Positions 3,419-52,796 of a stretch of DNA of 64,000 bases are shown piece after piece; positions within the stretch are counted from its first letter, which is position 1; each line of letters begins with the position of its first letter. Origin of the DNA: Escherichia coli (lineage in GTDB: Bacteria; Pseudomonadota; Gammaproteobacteria; Enterobacterales; Enterobacteriaceae); assembly GCF_041886205.1 (NCBI RefSeq), contig NZ_CP169029.1, one strand, 5' to 3'. The position numbers were made by a program, and so were the translations under genes. The notes beneath the pieces are model-generated. The model ran no database searches. It was given only the letters and a program-made list of their open reading frames with translations, and was not told where the DNA came from.

Positions 3419-4930
3419 ATGTTCACGGCAACAGAGGCAGTCCCGGTAGCAAAAGTGGTGGCAGGAAATAAGCGTTATCCCGGCGTCGTTGCGTTGGATA
3501 ACGTTAACTTCACGCTCAATAAAGGCGAAGTTCGTGCGCTGTTAGGCAAAAACGGCGCGGGCAAATCGACCCTCATTCGAATGCTTACCGGTAGCGAACG
3601 TCCGGATAGCGGTGATATCTGGATTGGCGAGACGCGACTGGAAGGCGACGAAGCTACGCTGACTCGCCGTGCCGCTGAACTGGGGGTACGCGCGGTTTAT
3701 CAGGAGTTAAGTCTGGTGGAAGGGCTGACGGTGGCGGAAAACCTCTGCCTCGGTCAGTGGCCCCGCCGCAACGGCATGATTGATTACCTGCAAATGGCGC
3801 AGGATGCCCAACGTTGCTTACAGGCGTTGGGCGTTGACGTTAGTCCTGAACAACTTGTTTCAACACTAAGCCCGGCGCAAAAGCAGCTGGTGGAAATTGC
3901 GCGGGTGATGAAGGGCGAGCCGCGCGTGGTCATTCTTGATGAACCTACCAGTTCGCTTGCCAGTGCGGAAGTTGAACTGGTGATCAGCGCGGTGAAAAAG
4001 ATGTCGGCACTGGGCGTGGCGGTAATTTATGTCAGCCACCGGATGGAAGAAATTCGCCGCATTGCCTCCTGTGCCACCGTTATGCGCGATGGTCAGGTGG
4101 CGGGCGATGTGATGCTCGAAAACACCTCCACGCATCATATTGTGTCGCTGATGCTCGGGCGCGATCACGTTGATATTGCGCCGGTTGCCCCTCAGGAAAT
4201 TGTGGATCAGGCCGTACTGGAAGTCCGTGCGTTACGCCATAAGCCCAAGCTGGAGGATATCAGTTTTACGCTACGTCGTGGCGAAGTGCTCGGCATTGCT
4301 GGTCTGCTGGGGGCAGGGCGCAGTGAATTGCTGAAGGCGATTGTTGGGCTGGAGGAGTATGAACAGGGCGAAATTGTTATCAACGGCGAGAAAATCACGC
4401 GCCCCGATTACGGCGACATGCTGAAACGCGGCATTGGCTATACGCCAGAAAACCGCAAAGAAGCGGGGATCATTCCCTGGTTGGGCGTTGACGAAAATAC
4501 AGTGCTGACCAATCGGCAAAAAATCAGCGCCAACGGTGTGCTGCAATGGTCCACCATCCGCCGCCTGACCGAAGAAGTGATGCAGCGGATGACGGTCAAG
4601 GCCGCCAGTAGCGAAACGCCCATCGGCACGCTTTCTGGCGGCAATCAGCAAAAAGTAGTGATCGGTCGTTGGGTCTATGCCGCCAGCCAGATTTTGTTGC
4701 TCGACGAGCCAACGCGCGGCGTCGATATCGAAGCCAAACAGCAGATTTACCGTATTGTCCGTGAGCTGGCTGCCGAAGGAAAAAGTGTGGTGTTTATCTC
4801 CAGTGAAGTGGAGGAGTTGCCGCTGGTGTGTGACCGCATCCTGTTATTACAGCACGGCACGTTCTCGCAGGAGTTTCACTCGCCGGTCAATGTGGATGAG
4901 CTGATGTCCGCCATTCTGTCTGTGCACTGA
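3419..4930 (+). CDS. yphE: ABC transporter ATP-binding protein with duplicated NBD (YphE)
   Basis: 503 aa; Walker A GKNGAGKST, ABC signature LSGGNQQKV and a second nucleotide-binding domain, as in sugar-type ABC ATPases. Confidence 0.9.
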   Translation: MFTATEAVPVAKVVAGNKRYPGVVALDNVNFTLNKGEVRALLGKNGAGKSTLIRMLTGSERPDSGDIWIGETRLEGDEATLTRRAAELGVRAVYQELSLVEGLTVAENLCLGQWPRRNGMIDYLQMAQDAQRCLQALGVDVSPEQLVSTLSPAQKQLVEIARVMKGEPRVVILDEPTSSLASAEVELVISAVKKMSALGVAVIYVSHRMEEIRRIASCATVMRDGQVAGDVMLENTSTHHIVSLMLGRDHVDIAPVAPQEIVDQAVLEVRALRHKPKLEDISFTLRRGEVLGIAGLLGAGRSELLKAIVGLEEYEQGEIVINGEKITRPDYGDMLKRGIGYTPENRKEAGIIPWLGVDENTVLTNRQKISANGVLQWSTIRRLTEEVMQRMTVKAASSETPIGTLSGGNQQKVVIGRWVYAASQILLLDEPTRGVDIEAKQQIYRIVRELAAEGKSVVFISSEVEELPLVCDRILLLQHGTFSQEFHSPVNVDELMSAILSVH

Positions 4931-4954
4931 TGAATTTTACCGAGGAACCTGAAG

Positions 4955-5953
4955 ATGTCTGCTTCGTCATTACCATTGCCGCAGGGCAAGAGCGTCTCGC
5001 TCAAACAATTTGTCAGTCGCCATATTAATGAGATCGGTTTGCTGGTGGTGATTGCCATTCTTTATCTGGTCTTCTCCCTGAACGCGCCTGGCTTTATCTC
5101 ATTGAATAACCAGATGAACGTGCTGCGCGATGCCGCCACCATTGGGATTGCCGCCTGGGCGATGACGCTGATTATTATCTCCGGTGAGATTGATGTCAGC
5201 GTTGGGCCGATGGTGGCTTTTGTCTCGGTGTGCCTGGCATTTTTGCTGCAATTTGAAGTTCCGCTGGCGGTGGCGTGCCTGCTGGTGTTGCTGTTAGGCG
5301 CGCTGATGGGAACGCTGGCCGGGGTGCTGCGCGGCGTGTTTAATGTACCAAGTTTCGTTGCCACACTGGGGCTGTGGAGCGCCCTGCGCGGAATGGGGCT
5401 GTTTATGACGAACGCACTGCCAGTGCCGATTGATGAAAACGAGGTGCTGGACTGGCTGGGCGGACAATTTCTCGGTGTGCCGGTATCCGCGCTGATCATG
5501 ATTGTGTTGTTTGCGCTGTTTGTGTTCATCAGCCGCAAAACCGCCTTCGGGCGCTCGGTTTTTGCCGTTGGCGGTAATGCTACGGCGGCGCAGTTGTGCG
5601 GCATCAACGTTCGTCGGGTGCGCATTCTTATCTTTACCCTTTCGGGATTATTAGCGGCGGTGACCGGCATTTTGTTGGCGGCGCGCCTCGGTTCTGGTAA
5701 CGCAGGTGCCGCAAACGGTCTGGAGTTTGACGTCATCGCCGCGGTCGTGGTCGGCGGTACGGCACTTTCCGGCGGTCGCGGTTCCCTGTTCGGTACATTG
5801 CTTGGTGTGCTGGTGATTACGCTAATCGGTAACGGTCTGGTGCTGCTCGGTATTAACTCCTTTTTCCAGCAGGTGGTACGCGGCGTCATCATCGTGGTGG
5901 CGGTGCTGGCGAATATCTTGCTGACCCAGCGAAGCAGTAAAGCGAAACGCTAA
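4955..5953 (+). CDS. yphD: ABC transporter permease (YphD)
   Basis: 332 aa, highly hydrophobic multi-pass membrane protein immediately downstream of the ATPase. Confidence 0.85.
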   Translation: MSASSLPLPQGKSVSLKQFVSRHINEIGLLVVIAILYLVFSLNAPGFISLNNQMNVLRDAATIGIAAWAMTLIIISGEIDVSVGPMVAFVSVCLAFLLQFEVPLAVACLLVLLLGALMGTLAGVLRGVFNVPSFVATLGLWSALRGMGLFMTNALPVPIDENEVLDWLGGQFLGVPVSALIMIVLFALFVFISRKTAFGRSVFAVGGNATAAQLCGINVRRVRILIFTLSGLLAAVTGILLAARLGSGNAGAANGLEFDVIAAVVVGGTALSGGRGSLFGTLLGVLVITLIGNGLVLLGINSFFQQVVRGVIIVVAVLANILLTQRSSKAKR

Positions 5954-10872: not shown

Positions 10873-12883
<2,011 letters not shown>

Positions 12884-13774
12884 ATGGAACTACGGCATTT
12901 ACGCTATTTCGTCGCAGTGGCGCAGGCACTGAACTTTACCCGTGCGGCGGAAAAACTGCATACCTCACAGCCTTCGTTAAGCAGCCAGATCCGCGATCTT
13001 GAAAACTGTGTCGGTGTTCCGTTACTGGTGAGGGATAAGCGCAAAGTCGCGTTGACGGCGGCGGGAGAATGTTTTCTCCAGGACGCGCTGGCAATCCTCG
13101 AACAAGCGGAAAATGCCAAATTACGGGCGCGGAAAATTGTTCAGGAAGACAGACAATTAACCATTGGCTTTGTGCCATCGGCGGAAGTGAATTTACTGCC
13201 AAAAGTATTACCGATGTTTCGTCTCAGACAGCCAGACACCTTGATTGAGCTGGTGAGTTTAATCACCACGCAACAGGAGGAAAAAATTCGCCGTGGTGAA
13301 CTCGACGTCGGCTTAATGCGCCATCCTGTTTATAGCCCGGAGATTGATTATCTGGAGCTTTTTGACGAACCATTAGTGGTGGTGTTACCGGTTGATCACC
13401 CTTTAGCACATGAAAAAGAGATCACCGCCGCGCAACTGGATGGCGTGAATTTCGTCAGTACCGATCCGGCGTATTCCGGTTCGCTTGCGCCGATCGTTAA
13501 AGCGTGGTTTGCACAAGAAAACAGCCAGCCAAATATCGTCCAGGTGGCAACGAATATTCTGGTGACCATGAATCTGGTGGGCATGGGGCTGGGCGTCACT
13601 TTGATACCCGGTTATATGAATAATTTTAATACCGGGCAGGTTGTTTTTCGTCCCATTGCCGGAAATGTGCCTTCCATTGCTTTACTGATGGCGTGGAAGA
13701 AAGGGGAGATGAAGCCGGCATTACGCGATTTCATCGCCATTGTGCAGGAACGTTTGGCAAGCGTAACGGCATAA
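12884..13774 (+). CDS. hcaR: LysR-family transcriptional activator HcaR
   Basis: N-terminal HTH MELRHLRYFVAVAQALNFTRAAEKLHTSQPSLSSQIRDLE. Start set at ATG 12884 (GGGGAAGG RBS), giving 296 aa; the track ORF starts at an upstream in-frame codon. Confidence 0.85.
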   Translation: MELRHLRYFVAVAQALNFTRAAEKLHTSQPSLSSQIRDLENCVGVPLLVRDKRKVALTAAGECFLQDALAILEQAENAKLRARKIVQEDRQLTIGFVPSAEVNLLPKVLPMFRLRQPDTLIELVSLITTQQEEKIRRGELDVGLMRHPVYSPEIDYLELFDEPLVVVLPVDHPLAHEKEITAAQLDGVNFVSTDPAYSGSLAPIVKAWFAQENSQPNIVQVATNILVTMNLVGMGLGVTLIPGYMNNFNTGQVVFRPIAGNVPSIALLMAWKKGEMKPALRDFIAIVQERLASVTA

Positions 13775-13933
13775 TTACGCATTATCTTTGCAACATGCGT
13801 CACGGATCGCAGTTTTTGAGTGCTTGTGAACTGGCGTTACAGACATCGGGAAGCAGGCTCGAATATTCTTATTTTTCAACTTGCACCAACATTCGATTAA
13901 CTCCAGACTAACGCCTCCTGACGGGAGGGACTC

Positions 13934-15073
13934 ATGGTTTTGCAATCCACGCGCTGGTTGGCGCTCGGCTATTTCACATACTTTTTTAGTTACGGCATTT
14001 TTCTACCTTTCTGGAGCGTCTGGCTTAAAGGGATTGGTTTAACGCCAGAAACCATCGGCCTGTTATTGGGGGCAGGTCTGGTTGCCCGTTTTCTCGGGAG
14101 TTTGCTCATCGCGCCCCGCGTCAGCGATCCTTCCCGCCTGATTTCCGCCTTGCGCGTGCTGGCACTGCTGACACTTCTCTTTGCTGTCGCCTTCTGGGCG
14201 GGGGCGCACGTAGCGTGGCTGATGCTGGTGATGATTGGCTTTAACCTCTTTTTCTCACCGCTGGTACCGTTGACCGATGCACTGGCGAATACGTGGCAAA
14301 AGCAGTTCCCGCTTGATTACGGCAAAGTGCGACTGTGGGGCTCGGTGGCGTTTGTCATTGGCTCGGCGCTGACGGGCAAACTGGTCACTATGTTTGATTA
14401 TCGGGTGATCCTCGCGCTGTTGACGTTGGGCGTGGCATCCATGCTGCTCGGCTTTCTCATCCGTCCGACGATTCAGCCACAAGGGGCAAGCCGCCAGCAG
14501 GAGAGCACCGGTTGGTCTGCGTGGTTGGCGCTGGTTCGCCAGAACTGGCGCTTTCTGGCCTGCGTTTGTTTATTGCAGGGGGCACATGCGGCCTATTACG
14601 GTTTTAGCGCCATTTACTGGCAGGCAGCTGGCTACTCGGCCTCGGCGGTGGGGTATTTGTGGTCGCTGGGCGTGGTGGCGGAAGTCATTATCTTTGCGCT
14701 GAGTAATAAACTTTTCCGCCGTTGTAGTGCTCGCGATATGCTGTTGATCTCGGCGATTTGCGGCGTAGTGCGCTGGGGCATTATGGGAGCAACTACGGCG
14801 TTGCCGTGGTTGATAGTGGTGCAAATTCTGCATTGCGGCACCTTCACGGTCTGCCACCTGGCCGCCATGCGTTATATTGCTGCTCGCCAGGGTAGCGAAG
14901 TCATCCGTTTACAGGCGGTTTACTCTGCCGTCGCGATGGGCGGCAGTATCGCTATCATGACCGTTTTCGCCGGTTTCCTGTATCAATATCTGGGCCACGG
15001 CGTGTTCTGGGTGATGGCGCTGGTGGCGCTTCCGGCAATGTTTTTGCGCCCGAAAGTTGTTCCCTCATGCTGA
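13934..15073 (+). CDS. hcaT: MFS transporter, putative 3-phenylpropionate permease (HcaT)
   Basis: 379 aa, 12-TMS-like hydrophobic profile; adjacent to hcaR. Confidence 0.85.
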   Translation: MVLQSTRWLALGYFTYFFSYGIFLPFWSVWLKGIGLTPETIGLLLGAGLVARFLGSLLIAPRVSDPSRLISALRVLALLTLLFAVAFWAGAHVAWLMLVMIGFNLFFSPLVPLTDALANTWQKQFPLDYGKVRLWGSVAFVIGSALTGKLVTMFDYRVILALLTLGVASMLLGFLIRPTIQPQGASRQQESTGWSAWLALVRQNWRFLACVCLLQGAHAAYYGFSAIYWQAAGYSASAVGYLWSLGVVAEVIIFALSNKLFRRCSARDMLLISAICGVVRWGIMGATTALPWLIVVQILHCGTFTVCHLAAMRYIAARQGSEVIRLQAVYSAVAMGGSIAIMTVFAGFLYQYLGHGVFWVMALVALPAMFLRPKVVPSC

Positions 15074-16345
15074 TTCGAGCATTTTGCGGATCTGCTCCTG
15101 TTGATGTGTTGTCAGTGTCAGGTCCGTATAGATCAGCGGTGGTGAAAAGAGCGGTAACGGCATGGTATAAGGAGCAATAATCAGTGCCGCGCCTCGCGGA
15201 GCGCCTGTCTGCAAAAATGCCTTTACCGACATATGCTTAATGTTGAGCGGCAGTAACGTTAGTTCGCGTAACTGCTGCTCAATCTGCGCTTCTCGCTCGC
15301 TATCATTCCCGGTCAGTAGAATAATCTGTTTTTCATGCAGATCGTTTTCCTGCATTAGCCAGGCACCGAAAATCACCGCGACCAGACCACTTTCCTCATC
15401 AGAAAGATGGACGCCGTATTCACTTTCAAATCCGGCCAGCGCCGCGCGGGTGGTGCGCACCAGGCGTGGGTACAGTCTGGCGAACTCTTCCGGCAGGGTA
15501 TTATCAATACCGATGGCAAACAAACTGCGATTTAACGCCTGGGCGAGGTGGGTATAAAGCTGATCGCATAACCCCTGTTCATCATAAAAACGAACATTTC
15601 CCAGCTCACGAAAATGGTTTACCAGACGTTTGATAGACTGACGCAATTGTCTGTCTCGCTGATGCGCATCACGCAATGGATCGGGAACCCGCAACATGGA
15701 AAAAAGTAATGCCATAAACAGTGGCTCATCAGGCGGTACAGGCTGGAGCGCCCGACGCTGCCAGTGGCGTCCAATTTCCTGCGCTACCTGAAATTCAAGG
15801 CAGGATTCCGCCCAGCGACGTTGGAGCGGATTAAACTGAGGCGTCATTCCAGCGTGGTGCTGCAGCAAACAATATTGCAGATACAGACACAGGAAATGAA
15901 TATCGCGCGATTCAAAGCGTTTTTGCAGCCGTCGGGAGCAGAGATTCACTAACGCTTGTAGATTGGTATCGTCGTAAAAGTTACGCGCAATTCCGCGCCG
16001 CTTCAATTCACTCTTCAGGGCGGGGGTGAATTGGCTGGTAATAAATGACGGACACAGACGGAAACCACGTCGTAGCCAGTGAAATAAACACAAACGTTGG
16101 TTAAGCACTGTACCTTCAACCCGGTAGCTACCGTCATAACCAGTCGTCAGTGTGAGTTGATGATAGCGCAGGATCTCCCGTCCTGTTTCGCTGATATCAA
16201 GACTGGCAATATCATCATCCACACCATTAAGCTCGCTGAAGGTTGCCATGGTGGCGGTCAACCCCGGCTGAAAGAGCGTCAGCAAGATCTGGCAGCGGCG
16301 CTGGGGAGCCGAAAGGACAGATGGTGGAGCAAGCGTAGGCATCAT
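15065..16345 (-). CDS. csiE: Stationary-phase inducible protein CsiE
   Basis: About 426 aa from the MMPTLAPP start; its 3' end overlaps the hcaT 3' end by 9 nt (convergent). Confidence 0.75.
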   Translation of the reverse strand: MMPTLAPPSVLSAPQRRCQILLTLFQPGLTATMATFSELNGVDDDIASLDISETGREILRYHQLTLTTGYDGSYRVEGTVLNQRLCLFHWLRRGFRLCPSFITSQFTPALKSELKRRGIARNFYDDTNLQALVNLCSRRLQKRFESRDIHFLCLYLQYCLLQHHAGMTPQFNPLQRRWAESCLEFQVAQEIGRHWQRRALQPVPPDEPLFMALLFSMLRVPDPLRDAHQRDRQLRQSIKRLVNHFRELGNVRFYDEQGLCDQLYTHLAQALNRSLFAIGIDNTLPEEFARLYPRLVRTTRAALAGFESEYGVHLSDEESGLVAVIFGAWLMQENDLHEKQIILLTGNDSEREAQIEQQLRELTLLPLNIKHMSVKAFLQTGAPRGAALIIAPYTMPLPLFSPPLIYTDLTLTTHQQEQIRKMLESA

Positions 16346-16535
16346 CTGTAGATCTCCCATAAGCATAATTGATAAGAATAGCTAAAGTTTGCTCAGGGAA
16401 ATGGCGAAGTGAATGCTAATCATCAGAAATGTTGGCAAGCGTCACAGAATTTTTCTCATCTTAAACTGTTCTGACCAGTGGATTAGCATGTCTTAAGGTG
16501 GTTTTGTGAATGATTATCGCGCTAGCGATCATGGG

Positions 16536-17390
16536 TTAGTTCTGCGGATTCAACGCGCTAAGGATAAAGTCCACCATCTGTTCGCGATAAACATCGCCGT
16601 GACGATCGGAAAAAGCATCAATGTGTTCGCCATCCGGGATTAGGATCAACCGTTTTGGCTCTTTTGCCAGGCTATACAACTTTTCGCTGTGCTGCCATGG
16701 GATAACGTGATCAGCTTTACCATGTATAAGTAAAAGCGGGATCGGGCTGACGCTGGCGATGTAATTTTCGCCGCTGTAACTCTCATCAAGTAAGTAGCCA
16801 CTGCCGGGGATCATCTGGTTGGCGATGGTTGCATAAGAGGCAAATGTGGAGTCGAGGATCACCGCACGTATGCCTTCACGATCACCCTGACCAATAACAG
16901 CAAGAATATTCGCCCCGCCAATACTCTGCCCGAACAGCACCAGCCGTTGTGGGTTTACATCACTGCGATGGCGCACCACATTGATGGCGCTTTGCGTATC
17001 GTCCAGCAATCCGGCCTGGGACGGCGTGCCTTTTGATTTACCAAACCCGCGATAATCAAACATAAAAACGTTGAAATTACGCTCGGGTAACCAACTGACC
17101 AGCGGCCAGTGGGCGGACATATTTCCGGCATTGCCGTGAGCATGAATGATGGTTGCGATGGCGTTGTCAGCAGGGCCCGTCGAAGAAGGGATAAACCAGC
17201 CTTGCAGACGAGTACCGTCCTTAGCCGTAAATTCGACGGATTCCGCCGACCATGGGTCGGGACCGTAAATTTTATCGTCAGGATAATAGAAGAAGTTGAT
17301 GGCAACACGCGGCACTAAATAAACGCAGAAGGCAACAACAAAGAGAATAAACAGAATTTTGGGAACGCGTTTGTTCACTGGCAGTGCCAT
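16536..17390 (-). CDS. yfhR: Alpha/beta-hydrolase fold protein (YfhR)
   Basis: N-terminal membrane anchor and nucleophile elbow GQSIGG (GxSxG). Start set at the second Met, giving 284 aa. Confidence 0.7.
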   Translation of the reverse strand: MALPVNKRVPKILFILFVVAFCVYLVPRVAINFFYYPDDKIYGPDPWSAESVEFTAKDGTRLQGWFIPSSTGPADNAIATIIHAHGNAGNMSAHWPLVSWLPERNFNVFMFDYRGFGKSKGTPSQAGLLDDTQSAINVVRHRSDVNPQRLVLFGQSIGGANILAVIGQGDREGIRAVILDSTFASYATIANQMIPGSGYLLDESYSGENYIASVSPIPLLLIHGKADHVIPWQHSEKLYSLAKEPKRLILIPDGEHIDAFSDRHGDVYREQMVDFILSALNPQN

Positions 17391-17534
17391 AACCTTTCCT
17401 TGCGACTTCTTTATCATCCATTAATTGGGGAAAGATGGTGGGAGAGTGACGAAAGAAAGTAAAGCGGTGAGGAAGTATTTCGGAATAGCGCCTGAAAGGC
17501 GAGGGCGGGTGAGTGATATCACCCGCCTGAGTCA

Positions 17535-18338
17535 TTAACGCTTCAGAGCGTCGCTTAACTCGTCACGCATGTTCGCCAGCATGGCTTTAACAACACGCGG
17601 GTTACCAGCAACGATGTTACCGGTCAGCATATAGTTATGACCACCGGTGAAGTCGCTGACGATGCCGCCCGCTTCACGAACCAGCAGCTCGCCTGCAGCG
17701 AAGTCCCACGGGCGCAGACCGATTTCAAAGAAACCGTCAACACGACCCGCAGCGACGTAAGCCAGATCCAGCGCCGCAGAACCGGTACGACGGAAGTCTG
17801 CACATTCGTTGAACAGTTTGCCGACGATGTTGATGTAGGTAGTGGCGTACTGTTTTGCTTTGAACGGGAAGCCGGTCGCCAGAATAGTACCGTCGAGATC
17901 GCGAGCGGTGCTGCCGCGCAGACGGTAGCCGTTCAGCTGTGCGCCCTGACCGCGAGTGGCGGTGAACAGTTCGTTACGCATAGGATCGTATACCACAGCA
18001 ACTTCGGTGCGGCCTTTGATACGAACGGCGATAGATACCGCGAAGTGCGGCAGACGTTTGATAAAGTTGGTAGTGCCATCCAGTGGATCGATAACCCATT
18101 GAACATCCTGATCGGTACCTTCAAGTTCACCGCTTTCTTCGGTGATGATGGTGTGCTGTGGGTAAGATTTACGAATCGTGTCGATAATCACCGCTTCGGC
18201 AGCTTTATCTACGTTGGTCACGAAATCGTTACTGCCTTTCTGGCTCGCTTCTACAGCGTCCGGGGTTTCATAGTTTTTGGCAATTAAATTACCCGCCTTG
18301 CGCGCTGCGCGCACGGCGATGTTCAGCATCGGATGCAT
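17535..18338 (-). CDS. suhB: Inositol monophosphatase SuhB
   Basis: 267 aa; IMPase-family motifs (DPLDGT, WDFAAG). Confidence 0.9.
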   Translation of the reverse strand: MHPMLNIAVRAARKAGNLIAKNYETPDAVEASQKGSNDFVTNVDKAAEAVIIDTIRKSYPQHTIITEESGELEGTDQDVQWVIDPLDGTTNFIKRLPHFAVSIAVRIKGRTEVAVVYDPMRNELFTATRGQGAQLNGYRLRGSTARDLDGTILATGFPFKAKQYATTYINIVGKLFNECADFRRTGSAALDLAYVAAGRVDGFFEIGLRPWDFAAGELLVREAGGIVSDFTGGHNYMLTGNIVAGNPRVVKAMLANMRDELSDALKR

Positions 18339-18456
18339 CGGTCTCTCTCACTGGATGTTAAAGAACGGGAAAACGGCGCAGAGTATAGCAGCGAGATCGG
18401 CATCTGTCTTCGTTTTATGATAAGATGCGCGAATAATCTTTAGATGAAGAAAGACA

Positions 18457-19194
18457 ATGCTGCAAAATATTCGAATTGTGCTGGTGGAGACGTCACACAC
18501 CGGCAATATGGGTTCTGTTGCCCGTGCCATGAAAACAATGGGATTAACCAACCTGTGGCTGGTTAATCCACTGGTGAAACCTGACTCCCAGGCGATTGCC
18601 CTGTCAGCAGGGGCCAGCGATGTGATTGGTAATGCTCACATCGTCGATACGCTCGACGAAGCATTAGCTGGTTGTAGCCTGGTGGTGGGCACCAGTGCAC
18701 GCTCCCGCACGCTGCCGTGGCCGATGCTCGACCCGCGCGAATGTGGTCTGAAAAGCGTCGCTGAAGCGGCAAATACCCCGGTGGCGCTGGTTTTTGGTCG
18801 CGAGCGCGTCGGCTTGACCAATGAAGAGTTGCAGAAATGCCATTATCATGTCGCGATTGCCGCTAACCCTGAATACAGTTCGCTGAATCTGGCGATGGCG
18901 GTTCAGGTTATTGCCTATGAAGTGCGCATGGCCTGGCTTGCAACTCAGGAAAATGGTGAGCAGGTCGAGCATGAAGAGACGCCGTATCCGCTGGTCGATG
19001 ATCTGGAGCGTTTTTATGGTCATCTGGAACAAACGCTGCTGGCAACCGGTTTTATCCGTGAAAACCATCCGGGGCAGGTGATGAATAAATTGCGCCGTCT
19101 GTTTACCCGTGCGCGCCCGGAAAGCCAGGAATTGAATATCCTGCGCGGGATTCTGGCTTCTATTGAGCAGCAGAATAAAGGTAACAAGGCCTGA
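18457..19194 (+). CDS. trmJ: tRNA (cytidine/uridine-2'-O)-methyltransferase TrmJ
   Basis: 245 aa SPOUT-family methyltransferase ([22 protein letters not shown]); divergent from suhB and upstream of iscR. Confidence 0.9.
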
Positions 19195-36174: not shown

Positions 36175-36337
36175 AATATACAAAATATTTATTAATCTAA
36201 TTATGGTATTTATATTTGGAATGCATTAATAATTTAATAATCTCACGTTTTTTTAAACGACTAATTATTTGATTGTTATCAGCATTGTTCTCGAATAAAT
36301 ACGTGAATATTTATTTTTTCATTTTCGGGAACGCAAG
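36175..36337 (+). promoter_or_regulatory. AT-rich junction and putative promoter of the molybdoenzyme operon
   Basis: 163 bp that is strongly AT-rich by eye (runs such as aatatacaaaatatttattaatctaattatgg), sharply different from the flanking genes; immediately upstream of the first inserted gene. Confidence 0.4.
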
Positions 36338-38719
36338 ATGGATACGCCAGACGAAAAGGAACGCATTACATTTCCGCAAGTATCACGACGTAGTTTTTTA
36401 CAAGCGACTTCCGCGCTTATCACTTTGCCTTTTATTTCTTCTGCCGCAAAGGCGCAATCTTCAGATGCGTCGCCAGAAGTTACAGCTCCGGTGGCTGATA
36501 AAGTCGTGCCCACCTGTAGCACATTTGACTGTGGTGGTAAGTGCGATATTCGGGCGCATATGCGCGACGGTGTGGTGACGCAAATTACCACGCTTCCCGA
36601 TAACGAACTGGATCCACAAATGCCGATTATGCGCGCCTGTGTTCGTGGTCGCGGCTATCGTAAATTTGTTTATCATCCAGACCGCCTGAAATATCCGATG
36701 AAACGGGTCGGTAAACGGGGCGAGGGTAAATTTGAGCGTATTTCATGGGATGAGGCGACGACCTTAATTGCCGATAACCTGAAAAGGATCACGCAACAAT
36801 ATGGCCCGGCTTCACGTTATGTCCATGTCGGGACGGCTGTTTCTGGTGGAACATTTTCTGGTGATGCGATGGCACGTCGGCTGTTAAATTTAACCGGTGG
36901 TTATCTTGAATATTATCACTCAGTTAGTCTGGGTAATACTGCGGCCGCAACGCCTTACACGTATGGCGTGGCGGCCAGCGGTAACTCGATGGACACTCTT
37001 CTGGATACCAAACTGGTGATCCTCTGGGGGCATAACCCAACGGAAACCATCTTCGGTCACACCAATTACTTTTTTCAAAAAATGAAGCAAAACGGTACGC
37101 GTTTTATCGTGGTGGATCCGCGTTATTCCGACACTGTATCTTCGCTTGCCGATCAGTGGATCCCGCTGCTGCCGACCACGGACAATGCGTTGATGGACGC
37201 GATGATGTACGTGATTATCAGCGAAAATCTCCACGATAAGCAGTTTATCGAAACTTACACGCTCGGTTTTGATGAAGATTCCATGCCTGAGGGCGTACCG
37301 GCGAACGAGTCGCTGTATGCCTACCTGTTCGGCGCGAAAGATGGCGTGCGCAAAACGCCGGAATGGGCAGAAAAAATTACCCACGTTCCGGCACAAACTA
37401 TTCGTCAACTGGCACGCGATTACGCCACTACAAAACCTGCGGCGCTGATTCAGGGTTGGGGGCCACAGCGACATATTTGCGGCGAACGTACCGCCCGAGG
37501 TTCAACTTTACTGGCCTCGATTACCGGTAACGTCGGCATCAAAGGTGGCTGGGCGGCAGGTTATGGCGGTAGTTCTAATCGTAAATTCTGCGTTGGACCA
37601 GATATGCCAGAAAATCCGGTACAAGCGAAAATCTCGATTATGAACTGGATGCAGGCGGCGGATGATGCTTCTAAAGTTACGCCGCAAGATGGGCTTAAAG
37701 GTGTCGATAAACTCGACAGTAATATCCGCCTGCTGTTCTCACTGGCAGGTAATTATCTGGCGAACCAGAACCCGGACGTCCACCAGGCCGCGAAGCTCCT
37801 TGAAGACGAATCTAAAATAGAATTCATCGTACTCAGCGATCTGTTCATGACTCCGAGCGCGAAATATGCCGATGTGTTGCTGCCGGAAACCAGCTTTATG
37901 GAACGCTGGAATATCGGCGAAACATGGGGAACAGCGAGCTATCTTATTCTGTCAGAAAAACTGATTGAGCCGGAGTTTGAACGTCGCACGGATTATGACT
38001 GGTTGCGTGACGTGGCGAAAAAACTGGGTGTCGAAGCCGAGTTCAGTCAGGGACGTGATGAGAAGCAATGGATTGAGCATATCTGGGAGCAAACTCGTCT
38101 GGCGATGCCGGATGAAAATTTGCCGGACTTCGCGACCCTGCAAAAAACACGTCGCCATCTTTTCAAAAGTGCGCCGCACATCGCTTTCGAAGCAAATATT
38201 CGCGATCCGCAGAATAATCCTTTCCCGACGCCTTCCGGCAAAATTGAGATCTTCTCTAAGCGTCTTTTTGATATGCAAGATCCAGAAATTCCCGCGCTTT
38301 CGCACTATGTCCCTGCCTTTGAAGGGCCAGAAGATAAACTGACGGCGAAATACCCGTTGCAGCTCATCACCTGGAAAGGGAAAAACCGTGCTAATTCCAC
38401 CCAGTATGCTAACCCATGGCTGCAAGAAGTTCAGACGCAAAAACTCTGGCTGAATCCGCAAGATGCAAAACAGCGCGGGATTAGCGAAGGAGATAGCGTA
38501 AAAATTTATAACGATCGTGGTGTGAGCATTATCCCGGTGGAAATAACCCCCCGTATCATCCCTGGCGTAGTTGCTATGCAGGCGGGGGCATGGTGGCAAC
38601 CGGATGCACAAGGTATCGATCGCGGAGGCTGTGCCAATGTACTGAGTTCGACCCGCATTACGGCGCTGGCGAAAGGGAATTCGCATCAAACAATGCTGGT
38701 GGAGGTTGAGAAAGCATGA
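36338..38719 (+). CDS. Molybdopterin (bis-MGD) oxidoreductase catalytic subunit, DMSO-reductase family (DmsA/YnfE-like), Tat-exported
   Basis: 793 aa; twin-arginine motif SRRSFLQA with hydrophobic region and AxA site; N-terminal Cys cluster CSTFDCGGKC; molybdopterin oxidoreductase-like throughout. Confidence 0.85.
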   Translation: MDTPDEKERITFPQVSRRSFLQATSALITLPFISSAAKAQSSDASPEVTAPVADKVVPTCSTFDCGGKCDIRAHMRDGVVTQITTLPDNELDPQMPIMRACVRGRGYRKFVYHPDRLKYPMKRVGKRGEGKFERISWDEATTLIADNLKRITQQYGPASRYVHVGTAVSGGTFSGDAMARRLLNLTGGYLEYYHSVSLGNTAAATPYTYGVAASGNSMDTLLDTKLVILWGHNPTETIFGHTNYFFQKMKQNGTRFIVVDPRYSDTVSSLADQWIPLLPTTDNALMDAMMYVIISENLHDKQFIETYTLGFDEDSMPEGVPANESLYAYLFGAKDGVRKTPEWAEKITHVPAQTIRQLARDYATTKPAALIQGWGPQRHICGERTARGSTLLASITGNVGIKGGWAAGYGGSSNRKFCVGPDMPENPVQAKISIMNWMQAADDASKVTPQDGLKGVDKLDSNIRLLFSLAGNYLANQNPDVHQAAKLLEDESKIEFIVLSDLFMTPSAKYADVLLPETSFMERWNIGETWGTASYLILSEKLIEPEFERRTDYDWLRDVAKKLGVEAEFSQGRDEKQWIEHIWEQTRLAMPDENLPDFATLQKTRRHLFKSAPHIAFEANIRDPQNNPFPTPSGKIEIFSKRLFDMQDPEIPALSHYVPAFEGPEDKLTAKYPLQLITWKGKNRANSTQYANPWLQEVQTQKLWLNPQDAKQRGISEGDSVKIYNDRGVSIIPVEITPRIIPGVVAMQAGAWWQPDAQGIDRGGCANVLSSTRITALAKGNSHQTMLVEVEKA

Positions 38720-39345
38720 GCCAATTTAAAGAATTTGCATCTGTCAGCGACAAACAATTAGGGTTCTTCATTGACTCTTCGCGTTGTTCTGGCTGTAAAG
38801 CGTGTCAGGTGGCCTGTAAAGACAAAAATAACCTTGAGGTTGGGCGACGTTTTCGCCGCGTGTATGAAGTGAACGGCGGTGGCTTCATCGCCACTGGAGA
38901 GGGCGGTGTGAGTCATAATGTCTTTGCTTATACCCTTTCTATTTCCTGTAACCATTGCGCGGATCCGATCTGTATCAAAAATTGCCCGACGATGGCGATG
39001 CATAAGCGTCCCGGAGACGGTATTGTGCGCGTGAATACTGATAAGTGCGTCGGTTGCGGTTACTGCGCCTGGTCCTGTCCTTACGGCGCACCGCAAATGA
39101 ATGAGCAGACCGGGCAGATGTCGAAATGCGATTTCTGTATTGATCTGCAAGCTAAAGGAGAACAACCCATTTGCGTGGCAACGTGCCCGTTGGGGGCGAT
39201 TAAGTTCGGCCCTATTGATGAGTTGCGTGAAAAGTATGGCGATGTCAGTGATGTGAAAGGTTTACCTGATTCGTCGATTACGCAGCCAAATCTGGTGATT
39301 AAACCGCATCAGGGCGCGGAAAAGGAGGCGTCACATCATGCATGA
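38716..39345 (+). CDS. 4Fe-4S electron-transfer subunit (DmsB-like)
   Basis: 209 aa with several Cys motifs of ferredoxin type (CSGCKACQVACK, CNHCADPICIKNCP, CVGCGYCAWSCP, CDFC…CVATCP); ATGA overlap with the upstream gene. Confidence 0.85.
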   Translation: MSQFKEFASVSDKQLGFFIDSSRCSGCKACQVACKDKNNLEVGRRFRRVYEVNGGGFIATGEGGVSHNVFAYTLSISCNHCADPICIKNCPTMAMHKRPGDGIVRVNTDKCVGCGYCAWSCPYGAPQMNEQTGQMSKCDFCIDLQAKGEQPICVATCPLGAIKFGPIDELREKYGDVSDVKGLPDSSITQPNLVIKPHQGAEKEASHHA

Positions 39346-40159
39346 ATTACCGTTAATGGCTTTTACGCTGTTGTTACAGGCATCGGTCGGTATGACCTTG
39401 TGGCTGGCGTTTCTTCATCGTCATATTTTAATCACCTCCAGCGCCCGCCCGGTTATGCGGCCGCCATTACTGTTGGCTTTTTTGGCAGGTGCCGTAGGGT
39501 TACTGATTTCTACCTTACATCTGGGTTATCCACTTAATGCGATGCATGCGCTAAGCCACTTTTCCAGTTCATGGCTGAGTCGGGAAATTATCTTTGGTGC
39601 GCTGTATCTGGCGCTATTGGGTTTATCCACATTACTGGTCATGTTACGCAAAGGCGGCTGGCAACTCCTGCTTATGCTAGCGGCAGTGGTCGGGATTGTT
39701 GATGTTTTCTGCATGGCGCAAGTTTACATCCATACGTCGATTATCACCTGGCAGCATTACAACACGCTGATTATGTTCTTAGGTACAGTGGGAATTCTCG
39801 GTTCAGCGCTGGTAGCAGTGTTTCGTATTAGCGGAATTTTGCCGCAGATTGATGCCCTGCGTAATGGATGCGTGTTGGTGATCGCTTTCCTGGTTCTGTT
39901 GCGTTTGTTGGTTCAGCCGTTGTGGATAGGGGATTTAACGGCAAATGCGATGCAGATAGCCACATTGCCACATGCGCCATTAGCGATGCTGGGACAGTTA
40001 AAACCCATACTGACACTAAGCTGGGGAATTTCCGTCATTGGGATGATGTTCTTTGCTGTCGGTGGTTGTAAAAAGAATATCCCGGCGGCGTTATTCGGTA
40101 GCGTAATGCTAGTGGGGAGTGAAGTTATGCTGCGTTTTGTCTTTTTTAGTATCAGCTAA
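39338..40159 (+). CDS. Integral-membrane anchor subunit (DmsC-like)
   Basis: 273 aa, about 8 hydrophobic segments; overlaps the B-subunit stop by 8 nt. Confidence 0.75.
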   Translation: MHELPLMAFTLLLQASVGMTLWLAFLHRHILITSSARPVMRPPLLLAFLAGAVGLLISTLHLGYPLNAMHALSHFSSSWLSREIIFGALYLALLGLSTLLVMLRKGGWQLLLMLAAVVGIVDVFCMAQVYIHTSIITWQHYNTLIMFLGTVGILGSALVAVFRISGILPQIDALRNGCVLVIAFLVLLRLLVQPLWIGDLTANAMQIATLPHAPLAMLGQLKPILTLSWGISVIGMMFFAVGGCKKNIPAALFGSVMLVGSEVMLRFVFFSIS

Positions 40160-41013
40160 TGTTAAGTCATAACATAACGATTGGCGCGGAATGCGCGCGC
40201 CAACGCTTTCGTTTTGCAACATGTCATGCCTGTGTCGAGGCTTGCCCGGCACAGGCGCTAACGCTGACAGAAGAGGGCGTAGCGGTCGACGCGGAACAAT
40301 GTATTGAGTGTGCGGTTTGCCAGTTTATTTGCCCGCAAGAGGCTATTCGTGGCGTTAATTCCCCTTTACGTTATTTTCGCAATCACACCCTGGTCGCACC
40401 TTTCACCACTATTGCGCCGACGCTGGAAGAACTTTTGCTATGGCATAAAGAGCAGGGGATCACAGCGATCGCGATTGATCTGAGTCAGGCGAAGGCATGG
40501 GAGCGCGCATTATTGCTGTTAAACGAACGCTTACGGCAATATGGCGAGGAAGGCTGGTCTGTGGTATCTCCACATACCAGTGAGGTGAATGTTTCCCGGC
40601 GTCGTTTGTTCCATGTGCAGCGTGCGGATGTTCAGATGACACAAATACAGCCAGGATTACGTCGGTTACATTATTTTTGGCCCCAGATTAGTGATGCTCG
40701 CCCGATGATGGATCCTCAAAAGTGTCAGCTTTGCGGTGCATGCTGGCGGGCCTGCGGGCAACAGGTCTTTTCGCTTAACGAAGGCCATTTACAAATCAAT
40801 GATGCCTTGTGTACCGGATGCCAAAATTGTATTGCTGTTTGTTTTCATCAGGCAATGACCGTTGAATTGACGATTCTACCGGCAAAAATTGTGAATCTTC
40901 ATGCTAATCGCAAAGTCTGTAAAACCTGTCAAAAATCCTTTCTTACTTTTCAGCAAAATGCGCAAAATTGTCTTTATTGCCAACGTCATCGCTATGGGAT
41001 GAGAGCATCATAA
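40159..41013 (+). CDS. Ferredoxin-like iron-sulfur protein with C-terminal Cys-rich tail
   Basis: 284 aa; Cys motifs CIECAVCQFICP, CQLCGACWRACG, CTGCQNCIAVC, plus terminal CKTCQ…CLYCQ pairs; TAATG overlap with the membrane subunit. Confidence 0.65.
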   Translation: MLSHNITIGAECARQRFRFATCHACVEACPAQALTLTEEGVAVDAEQCIECAVCQFICPQEAIRGVNSPLRYFRNHTLVAPFTTIAPTLEELLLWHKEQGITAIAIDLSQAKAWERALLLLNERLRQYGEEGWSVVSPHTSEVNVSRRRLFHVQRADVQMTQIQPGLRRLHYFWPQISDARPMMDPQKCQLCGACWRACGQQVFSLNEGHLQINDALCTGCQNCIAVCFHQAMTVELTILPAKIVNLHANRKVCKTCQKSFLTFQQNAQNCLYCQRHRYGMRAS

Positions 41014-50466: not shown

Positions 50467-50621
50467 CTTCTCTTATTAGTTAAATCATTAATACATGTGA
50501 GTAAAATTATTTAGATATATTTTTAGGAATATATTTAGTTTTTCTGACGTGCCTTCCTGAATGTTCTGGCATAGAATATTAGAGCTTATTCATCAAATTA
50601 TCATTGCCACAGGGAAAGTGC

Positions 50622-52796
50622 ATGCTGCGATGGAGTCGCTTTATTATGTTACTATTCATCTCTGCTGCAACTCCTGCGGCAGAGATAAATAGTAAGCAAA
50701 ACGAATCGTTACCTGATTTAGGCAGCCAGGCGGCTCAACAAGTAGAACAAACGGATAAGGGTAAATCGTTAAAAGAGCGTGGAGCCGATTACGTCATTGA
50801 TTCTGCTACGCAAGGGTTTGAAAACCTAACCCCCGAGGCGCTGGAATCTCAGGCCAGAAGCTATCTGCAAAGTCAAATCACCTCAACCGCACAATCTTAT
50901 ATTGAAGACACACTCTCTCCCTACGGTAAGGTCCGTTCGAATCTCTCTATTGGTCAGGGTGGCGATCTGGATGGTAGCTCCATCGATTATTTTGTTCCCT
51001 GGTATGATAATCAAACGACCGTTTATTTCAGTCAATTTTCTGCGCAACGAAAAGAGGATCGTACGATCGGGAATATCGGAATTGGAGTAAGACATAATTT
51101 CGATGAATGGCTTTTGGGTGGGAATATATTTTACGATTATGATTTCACCCGTGGGCATCGTCGTTTAGGTTTAGGGACAGAAGCCTGGACCAATTATTTA
51201 AAATTTTCTGGCAACTATTATCATCCGCTCTCTGACTGGAAAAACTCTGAGGATTTCGACTTTTATGAAGAGCGTCCGGCGCGCGGTTGGGATATTCGTG
51301 CTGAAGCCTGGTTACCTTCTTATCCACAACTGGGGGGCAAGATTGTCTTCGAGCAATATTACGGTGATGAAGTCGCCCTTTTTGGTACGGATAATTTAGA
51401 GAAAGATCCCTATGCGGTGACGCTAGGACTAAATTATCAACCGGTACCGTTACTGACAGTTGGAACGGATTATAAAGCGGGGACCGGAGATAACAGCGAT
51501 GTCAGCATTAATGCCACTCTTAATTATCAGTTCGGCGTTCCGCTAAAAGATCAACTCGACAGCGATAAAGTAAAAGCAGTCCACTCGTTGATGGGTAGCC
51601 GACAGGACTTTGTCGAGCGTAATAACTTTATCGTCCTGGAATATAAAGAGAAAGACCCTCTGGATGTGACGTTGTGGCTGAAAGCGGATGCGACCAACGA
51701 GCATCCAGAGTGCGTCATTAAGGACACTCCTGAAGCGGCGGTCGGTCTGGAAAAATGTAAGTGGACCATTAACGCACTGATCAATCACCACTACAAAATT
51801 GTCGCTGCGTCATGGCAGGCGAAAAACAATGCCGCCCGCACGCTGGTGATGCCGGTCATCAAAGAAAATACCATCACTGAAGGCAACAACAACCACTGGA
51901 ATCTGATACTGCCAGCCTGGCAGTACAGCTCTGACAAAGCTGAGCAGGAAAAACTCAATACCTGGCGGGTACGGCTGGCGCTGGAAGATGAAAAAGGTAA
52001 TCGGCAAAACTCCGGCCTGGTGGAAATCACTGTTCAGCAGGACCGTAAAATAGAGCTTATCGTCAATAACATTGCCGATGCGCCTGCCGAGAATAACCAC
52101 AGCCATGAAGCCAGCGCTCAGGCGGATGGCGTTGATGGTGTAGTCATGGACCTCGAGGTGACGGACAGTTTTGGCGATAACACGGACCGCAACGGTGATG
52201 CTCTGCCAGAAGATAATCTTGCACCGCAGCTCTACGACGCTCAGGACAAAAAAGTCACGCTAACCAATAAACCCTGCTCGACCGACAACCCCTGCGTGTT
52301 TATTGCCAAACAAGATAAAGAAAAGGGAACGGTAACCCTCTCCAGTACATTGCCAGGCGTTTTCCGCTGGAAAGCGAAAGCGGCTCCCTACGATGACAGT
52401 AACTATGTGGATGTCACGTTTATTGGATCTGATATCGGCGGGCTTAATGCTTTCATTTACCGGCTTGGGGTAGCGAAGCCAGTCAATTTGATCGGCAATG
52501 ATAAAGACCCCCTGCCGCTGGGCAACACGTACCGATTTGTGTTGTGGCGTGATGCCAACAAAGACGGCGTTTTTCAGCAGTCGGAAAAACTAACCGATGA
52601 AGAGATGACTCAGTACGACTACAAGTGGGAATTTACCGGCAAGAGCATCAATGGCGAAGTAGGTGCGCAGGCGAACACATCCAATGCAGACATTGTAATA
52701 CCGGCGACCAACCGTGAAGCGGCGCAATCCTATGGTGCAAAAGTGGAAGATGGCTTGCAGGGATACGGTTTACGCGTGCTGTACACCAAAAAATAA
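50622..52796 (+). CDS. sinH: Intimin/invasin-family inverse autotransporter (SinH-like)
   Basis: Signal peptide MLRWSRFIMLLFISAATPAA; intimin/invasin-like beta-domain motifs (GNIGIGVRH, YYHPLSDWK, GWDIRAEAWLPSYPQLGGK, EQYYGDEVALFG) followed by passenger domains. An alternative TTG at 50604 would give the 730-aa track ORF. Confidence 0.75.
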   Translation: MLRWSRFIMLLFISAATPAAEINSKQNESLPDLGSQAAQQVEQTDKGKSLKERGADYVIDSATQGFENLTPEALESQARSYLQSQITSTAQSYIEDTLSPYGKVRSNLSIGQGGDLDGSSIDYFVPWYDNQTTVYFSQFSAQRKEDRTIGNIGIGVRHNFDEWLLGGNIFYDYDFTRGHRRLGLGTEAWTNYLKFSGNYYHPLSDWKNSEDFDFYEERPARGWDIRAEAWLPSYPQLGGKIVFEQYYGDEVALFGTDNLEKDPYAVTLGLNYQPVPLLTVGTDYKAGTGDNSDVSINATLNYQFGVPLKDQLDSDKVKAVHSLMGSRQDFVERNNFIVLEYKEKDPLDVTLWLKADATNEHPECVIKDTPEAAVGLEKCKWTINALINHHYKIVAASWQAKNNAARTLVMPVIKENTITEGNNNHWNLILPAWQYSSDKAEQEKLNTWRVRLALEDEKGNRQNSGLVEITVQQDRKIELIVNNIADAPAENNHSHEASAQADGVDGVVMDLEVTDSFGDNTDRNGDALPEDNLAPQLYDAQDKKVTLTNKPCSTDNPCVFIAKQDKEKGTVTLSSTLPGVFRWKAKAAPYDDSNYVDVTFIGSDIGGLNAFIYRLGVAKPVNLIGNDKDPLPLGNTYRFVLWRDANKDGVFQQSEKLTDEEMTQYDYKWEFTGKSINGEVGAQANTSNADIVIPATNREAAQSYGAKVEDGLQGYGLRVLYTKK

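Follow-up and report, generated by a model that had tools for sequence, protein, structure and literature searches.

The spacer-less convergent junction of hcaT and csiE in Escherichia coli and its comparative anatomy across Enterobacteriaceae

The window analysed here, a stretch of 64,000 nucleotides of E. coli DNA, carries hcaT and csiE on opposite strands, arranged tail to tail (Table 1). On the plus strand, hcaT ends with the codons GTT CCC TCA TGC TGA, up to position 15073, giving the protein C-terminus RPKVVPSC before the stop. On the other strand, csiE ends with GAA TCA GCA TGA, down to position 15065, and its protein C-terminus is IRKMLESA. An earlier note on this DNA had stated that the two coding regions overlap by 9 nt at 15065–15073, and this is borne out by the sequence, by the list of open reading frames and by RefSeq. 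The shared nucleotides encode Ser-Cys-stop in hcaT and Ser-Ala-stop in csiE. The TCA at 15065–15067 is the complement of the csiE TGA stop and the TGA at 15071–15073 is the hcaT stop; the TCA serine codon of each gene is the complement of its partner's TGA.

Both genes have identical ends in the RefSeq annotation of strain LHM10-1, with which the window is 100% identical over positions 13800–16500, and the LHM10-1 gene order, hcaE(-), hcaR(+), hcaT(+), csiE(-), yfhR(-), suhB(-), fits that of the window base for base. In K-12 MG1655, RefSeq places csiE at 2665435..2666715 (+) and hcaT at 2666707..2667846 (-), with the same 9-nt overlap. HcaT matches the NCBIfam equivalog NF008346, together with TIGR00902, over residues 1–378 of 379, and also Pfam MFS_1_like, while CsiE matches the equivalog NF008597 over residues 1–425 of 426, and Pfam PRD. 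At its other end, the csiE open reading frame can be extended 7 codons upstream (16346–16366, minus strand) to an ATG at 16366 (MLMGDLQ-MMPTL...), but it is the annotated start, at 16345, that agrees with the equivalog model.

Three further observations concern the surroundings. In K-12, iroK (b4706) is annotated as a 21-codon open reading frame that lies at the 3' end of hcaR, in its frame and with the same stop; the corresponding interval here is 13709–13774 (+). In the matching RefSeq record, yphD is annotated as frameshifted (4954–5953) and sinH as having an internal stop (50621–52795). A four-gene cluster of the DMSO/selenate-reductase family lies between pbpC and ndk (36337–41012).

Table 1 Features at the hcaT/csiE junction in the window, and the form of the junction in related genomes.
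Feature	Position	Strand	Description	Basis
hcaT	13934–15073	+	379-aa MFS transporter; TGA stop at 15071–15073	Open reading frame list, RefSeq, NCBIfam, Pfam
csiE	15065–16345	-	426 aa, PRD domain; TGA stop from 15067 down to 15065	Open reading frame list, RefSeq, NCBIfam, Pfam
hcaT/csiE tail-to-tail overlap	15065–15073	both	TCATGCTGA, 9 nt	Read from sequence
csiE 3' UTR	15018–15064	-	Antisense to the last 56 nt of hcaT	Term-seq (PMC7815308)
Candidate Rho loading region, csiE-sense	14596–14843	-	C-rich, G-poor; about 220–470 nt beyond the csiE stop	
Candidate Rho loading region, hcaT-sense	15321–15451	+	C-rich, G-poor; about 250–380 nt beyond the hcaT stop	
Imperfect inverted repeat	15085–15126	+	GCGGATCTG...CAGGTCCGT; within the csiE 3' coding region	Folding
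Small 5-bp hairpin	15067–15082	+	ATGCT-GATTCG-AGCAT; spans the overlap, then TTTG	Sequence, folding
9-nt overlap			Escherichia, Citrobacter amalonaticus, C. sedlakii, Pseudenterobacter, Intestinirhabdus	
6-nt overlap			Salmonella arizonae, Salmonella diarizonae, three Citrobacter sp.	
4-nt overlap			Kosakonia, Leclercia, P. vulneris, Silvania, Cedecea colo, others	
14-nt overlap			Most Buttiauxella loci	
0-nt overlap			'E. coli E69' (an extra TAA stops csiE early: GAA TAA, then TCA), Enterobacter soli	
38-nt spacer	5237–5274 of locus L024		Cedecea sulfonylureivorans	
89-nt spacer	5237–5325 of locus L022		Dryocola	
186-nt spacer	4152–4337 of locus L031		Buttiauxella sp. A111	

Within E. coli, 5424 of 5426 complete genomes contain an 81-nt stretch spanning the junction, at an identity of at least 99% in 5000 of them and of 95–99% in the other 424. 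Overlaps of this kind are catalogued: Huvet & Stumpf 2014 (PMC4161906) found that 663 adjacent gene pairs overlap in a single E. coli genome, and that 75 of these pairs are convergent. The window itself holds four convergent pairs, with gaps of 47, -9, 31 and 119 nt, hcaT/csiE being the sole overlap. The overlap is a fixed property of two reading frames rather than a statistical signal, and is ordinary for E. coli. It is already annotated and catalogued, and the transcriptional reading given to it in the earlier note is largely right and already published. What is new in the present analysis is the comparative anatomy of the junction across Enterobacteriaceae.

A scan for CsiE in species-representative genomes yielded 36 loci besides the window, from Escherichia, Citrobacter, Salmonella (arizonae, diarizonae), Pseudenterobacter, Intestinirhabdus, Kosakonia, Leclercia, Enterobacter, Pseudescherichia, Silvania, Dryocola, Cedecea and Buttiauxella. 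hcaT is convergent on csiE in 35 of the 36. Overlap lengths were obtained by extending both frames to their stop codons at each locus, and are listed in Table 1 together with the three spacers. Judged by resemblance to the repeat consensus sequences, the spacers of Dryocola and Cedecea sulfonylureivorans are presumably REP palindromes, and that of Buttiauxella sp. A111 is one we take to be an ERIC/IRU element. At the Buttiauxella sp. A111 locus the insertion of the spacer altered the C-terminal residues of HcaT.

The codons at the junction are symmetric, reading TCA-NNN-TGA in the 9-nt group and TCATGA in Salmonella, with TTAG also found among other genera. The residues encoded at the overlap vary in both proteins: the CsiE C-termini read LESA, LESG, LES, LEC or IEC, and those of HcaT read VVPSC, VAASA, VVAAS, IAAR or CVNTQ. 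The cores that precede these variable tails, IRKMLE in CsiE and LRPKV in HcaT, are conserved. The orthologues of the 35–36 other species are 74–97% identical for HcaT and 59–90% for CsiE, HcaT being the better conserved. Overlap residues that vary while the protein cores stay conserved point to a tight junction that is ancient, with an exact overlap length that is labile and can be lost.

The neighbourhood on the far side of hcaT was compared between the window (11387–15073) and the other loci (L003–L038). hcaR and hcaE adjoin hcaT in E. coli only, where the hca cluster occupies the far side; in E. albertii the gene order is hcaT-yphA-yphB-yphC, and in Salmonella arizonae it is csiE> <hcaT <glyA. 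Since the far side of hcaT differs between genera in this way, the csiE/hcaT pair is older than the link of hcaT to the phenylpropionate catabolic genes. Judged by gene order, the conserved partner of hcaT is csiE and not the hca catabolic cluster.

The earlier note had held that no room is left for terminators between the two genes, which agrees with the sequence, there being no intergenic DNA. It had further held that transcription of each gene reads into the 3' end of the other. For csiE this is confirmed by Term-seq of MG1655 grown in LB to OD600 2.0 (Adams 2021, PMC7815308, Supplementary file 1), which records a 3' end at 2666762 (+) with 1664 reads, classed as 'primary' for csiE and as 'antisense' to hcaT. 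The position corresponds to window position 15018 on the minus strand, 47 nt beyond the csiE stop and 56 nt inside hcaT (the conversion was checked on the sequence), and published 3'-end data thus rule out, for csiE, the outcome that the earlier note had named as refuting, a transcript that ends before the overlap. Of the three Term-seq conditions, only the stationary-phase sample (LB, OD600 2.0) contains this end, as expected for csiE, and its read count lies near the bottom of the listed ends, which range from 10^3 to 10^6 (PMC7815308). For hcaT, no 3' end is recorded in any of the three conditions. Both genes are named in that study only in the 3'-end list (Supplementary file 1). As no intergenic DNA separates the genes, either mRNA must carry the complement of its partner's last codons.

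A pattern scan for intrinsic terminators found no terminator-like site on the plus strand from 15037 to 18600, or on the minus strand from 15984 down to 12700, and a G+C-rich stem-loop followed by a U-tract is absent within 2.3–3.5 kb past either stop codon. One plus-strand candidate, at 15019–15036, was set aside, as it is weak, with 5 pairs and an 8-nt loop, and precedes the hcaT stop. By contrast, the small toxin gene timP (27383–27508, -) converges on sseB elsewhere in the window across a 31-nt gap, with a strong hairpin of 9 bp, 7 of them G-C, followed by a U-run (27376–27355). No U-tract precedes the mapped csiE 3' end at 15018, and the sequence there folds no better than shuffled controls (z -0.28 and -0.18). 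The same holds for both 3' UTRs (z +0.5, +1.0, -0.3 and -0.2), and the mean z over 38 loci, at -0.8 for the csiE 3' UTR, -1.3 for the hcaT 3' UTR and -0.2 for the control, is unconvincing. A search of Rfam gave zero matches at E<=1 in 13500–17000.

Composition beyond the two stops was measured as the ratio of C to G in 78-nt windows, for which the 95th percentile across the whole stretch is 1.70. On the csiE-sense strand the ratio is 1.25–1.35 right after the csiE stop and 1.6–2.1 over 14596–14843, with values of about 2 at 220–400 nt past the stop. On the hcaT-sense strand the first ~150 nt (15074–15220) are G-rich, with a ratio of 0.36–0.65, and 15321–15451 reaches 1.6–2.0. These two C-rich, G-poor stretches are candidate Rho loading regions. 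Rho acts on untranslated RNA. From the composition of the sequence, both transcripts most likely end through Rho-dependent termination followed by 3' trimming. Rho-dependent termination with 3' ends trimmed back to a stem-loop was reportedly described by Dar & Sorek in 2018. The csiE end resembles the ends of Rho-terminated untranslated or antisense RNAs in having no U-tract, in lying shortly after a modest stem with no intrinsic terminator, and in the C-rich, G-poor untranslated antisense RNA downstream, which is found at both ends of the junction. It differs from the trimmed-end model in that the stem near the csiE 3' end is no more stable than shuffled sequence.

We consider it probable that the locus is a convergent junction without a spacer that is both old and neutral, with stop codons drifting in tails under no constraint and with factor-dependent termination of either transcript in the neighbouring gene. 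On this explanation hcaT and csiE would already have converged without a spacer before the genera of enterobacteria diverged. Both proteins would have C-terminal tails under little constraint, allowing the stop codons to drift through point changes and 3-nt indels to overlaps of 0 to 14 nt, and the 9 nt of E. coli would be a chance outcome of that drift. With no intergenic DNA and no nearby intrinsic terminator, each transcript would end inside the other gene; presumably a termination factor, most likely Rho, acts in the untranslated antisense stretch, and the 3' end is then trimmed. Both genes appear to be weakly transcribed, so that polymerases should seldom collide and RNA duplexes should seldom form, and little or no regulatory effect of the overlap would be expected.

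The arrangement is that of the convergent overlapping gene pairs of prokaryotes, in which genes on opposite strands share a short 3' overlap that arose by movement of stops in weakly constrained tails, and which stay adjacent more often than non-overlapping pairs. hcaT and csiE share 3' nucleotides, and both are genuine genes with correct ends. Nothing about the pair is materially different from this class; its only particular is that the junction predates the link between hcaT and the hca genes.

The earlier note had also suggested mutual antisense interference between a carbon-source-induced transporter and a stationary-phase gene. Strong mutual interference is unlikely, and the literature found does not describe hcaT as carbon-source-induced: its mRNA is constant across growth stages, temperatures and strains, and it is recommended as a qPCR reference (PMC3110127). 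hcaT has its own promoter, and an hcaT deletion mutant still grows on 3-phenylpropionate (PMC10249474). We nevertheless weighed the possibility of a functional convergent excludon, in which selection keeps the 3' overlap and one gene, when transcribed, reduces the expression of its partner, either by head-on polymerase collision or by RNase III cleavage of a duplex between the csiE 3' UTR and the 3' coding region of hcaT; a cut at that place would deprive the hcaT mRNA of its stop codon. Such an excludon is in our judgement unlikely, although several observations favour it. The csiE mRNA covers the last 56 nt of hcaT, different genera retain both the junction and the adjacency, and csiE belongs to those genes for which p19 captured dsRNA in abundance. 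The pair is also listed in the MG1655 'excludome', as one of 165 convergent transcript overlaps in Table 1 of the ExcludonFinder study (Sanmartin et al. 2025, PMC12288877), which means that it was seen in at least 50% of 58 MG1655 transcriptomes; excludon pairs in general show higher synteny (PMC12288877). The criterion of that listing is overlapping coverage, however, and any pair with overlapping coding sequences scores once both genes are expressed.

Other evidence runs against an excludon. The invariance of hcaT mRNA across growth stages speaks against its depending strongly on induction of csiE. The length of the overlap is itself labile, with natural variants that have 0 overlap or a spacer of 38–186 nt, and the low csiE signal in Term-seq implies that collisions should be rare. 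The dsRNA captured by p19 (Huang et al. 2020, PMC7373196) forms two clusters in csiE, at U00096.2 positions 2663548–2663955 and 2663459–2664122. With a coordinate conversion calibrated on the listed small-RNA sequences, these are found at 15846–16253 (E-165) and 15679–16342 (S-206), in the 5' half of csiE, and the abundant p19 small RNAs in csiE map to 16059–16271. Antisense start sites in csiE are given at U00096.2 positions 2663579, 2663957 and 2664156 (PMC7373196), which correspond to plus-strand positions 16222, 15844 and 15645 of the window. An antisense start site precedes the clusters by 2 and 34 nt, and at least 600 nt separate them from the overlap. The study lists no cluster at 15018–15073 and none for hcaT (PMC7373196); the listing holds clusters that pass a read threshold, so that weak dsRNA at the overlap could go unlisted. 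Since the clusters begin just past start sites internal to csiE, the visible antisense RNA against csiE starts inside csiE and not in hcaT.

The locus thus has the form of the convergent excludons of the Lasa/Toledo-Arana concept in that the 3' transcript ends overlap, with the csiE end inside hcaT, and in being listed as such a pair; it differs in that the dsRNA clusters in the published data fall in other parts of csiE, and in that the mapped transcript overlap is short, at least 56 nt. As a separate observation, the p19 data point to internal antisense RNA, independent of hcaT, in the 5' half of csiE (15645–16342; PMC7373196). No convincing -10/-35 motifs were seen by eye at the antisense start sites in csiE. 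A promoter match inside hcaT (14851–14878, 9/12 matches) was dropped, being one match against 2.6 expected by chance.

A different objection to neutrality is that the spacer-less adjacency has persisted in at least 10 enterobacterial genera while the genes beyond hcaT have changed, being glyA in Salmonella, yphA in E. albertii and the hca cluster in E. coli; this persistence could reflect selection. We regard it as rather doubtful that the junction has been kept for a functional reason amid this reshuffling. One option would be a conserved 3'-antisense coupling, in which stationary-phase transcription of csiE may trim or destabilise the hcaT message. Alternatively, CsiE, a PRD-domain protein with no assigned function, and the LacY-like MFS transporter may act in one pathway.

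It is still less probable, indeed very unlikely, that a hairpin embedded near the junction, either the inverted repeat at 15085–15126 or the small hairpin at 15067–15082 with its U-run, serves hcaT as a pause site, a terminator or an element that positions collisions, after the model of the non-canonical bidirectional terminators of SEnd-seq. The larger hairpin folds at -16.2 kcal/mol as hcaT-sense RNA and at -10.6 kcal/mol when read from the opposite strand, hairpins occur at a similar place in many genera, and head-on collisions placed by hairpins have been reported at E. coli convergent pairs (bioRxiv 10.1101/2022.10.23.513370). Yet the larger hairpin has no U-tract, and the small one, which contains only 2 G-C pairs and was missed by the terminator scan, was rejected as an intrinsic terminator; it is not conserved outside Escherichia, its arms being non-complementary in the Citrobacter and Salmonella rows of the alignment. 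A 48-nt piece around the larger hairpin gave z -3.7, but this piece had been picked before measuring, and its 79-nt context folds no better than shuffles (z -1.25).

Nor does the repeat at 15085–15126 behave as a conserved element. Its pairing register shifts by one codon between lineages, with no consensus structure and no covariation above that of the controls. RNAalifold gives a consensus for the csiE 3' region of only -2.75 kcal/mol, with a covariation term of -0.88, and the covariation score was equalled by 74 of 500 and 166 of 500 shuffles in the two registers. Pair counts are no better than in shuffles, and a control in which the partner was slid by 3 nt, one codon, pairs nearly as well. 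We attribute the hairpin to codon complementarity, CTG (Leu) being the reverse complement of CAG (Gln) and the tail of CsiE having the motif L-x-L...QQQ. Compared with bidirectional terminators, whether of the A/U-flanked hairpin type or of the SEnd-seq collision type, the hcaT/csiE locus is alike in that the genes converge and their two transcripts have to terminate within one small region, but it has no G+C-rich hairpin with A and U tracts.

That one gene truly ends elsewhere, and the overlap is an annotation artefact, found no support, has practically no probability and was rejected, given that the stop codons place both reading-frame ends unambiguously, that both proteins match equivalog models over their full length, and that the same ends recur in thousands of genomes and in other genera.

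The biological weight of the overlap is small, and the locus is a textbook case of compact genomes, in which convergent genes share their last codons and the transcript of each ends within its partner. In practice, deleting or tagging the 3' end of csiE or hcaT damages the partner gene. The primer of the Keio csiE deletion, which lies downstream of the intended site, removes the 3' end of hcaT including its last transmembrane helix (PMC9431181), and the phenotypes of that mutant may therefore not stem from csiE. hcaT is widely used as a qPCR reference, and an antisense effect driven by csiE in deep stationary phase, if there is any, would matter for that use. As the conserved partner of hcaT is csiE, reading the function of HcaT from its E. 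coli neighbours calls for caution; if CsiE and HcaT share a pathway, the name 'HcaT' would be a misnomer, taken from a neighbour that is recent and specific to E. coli.
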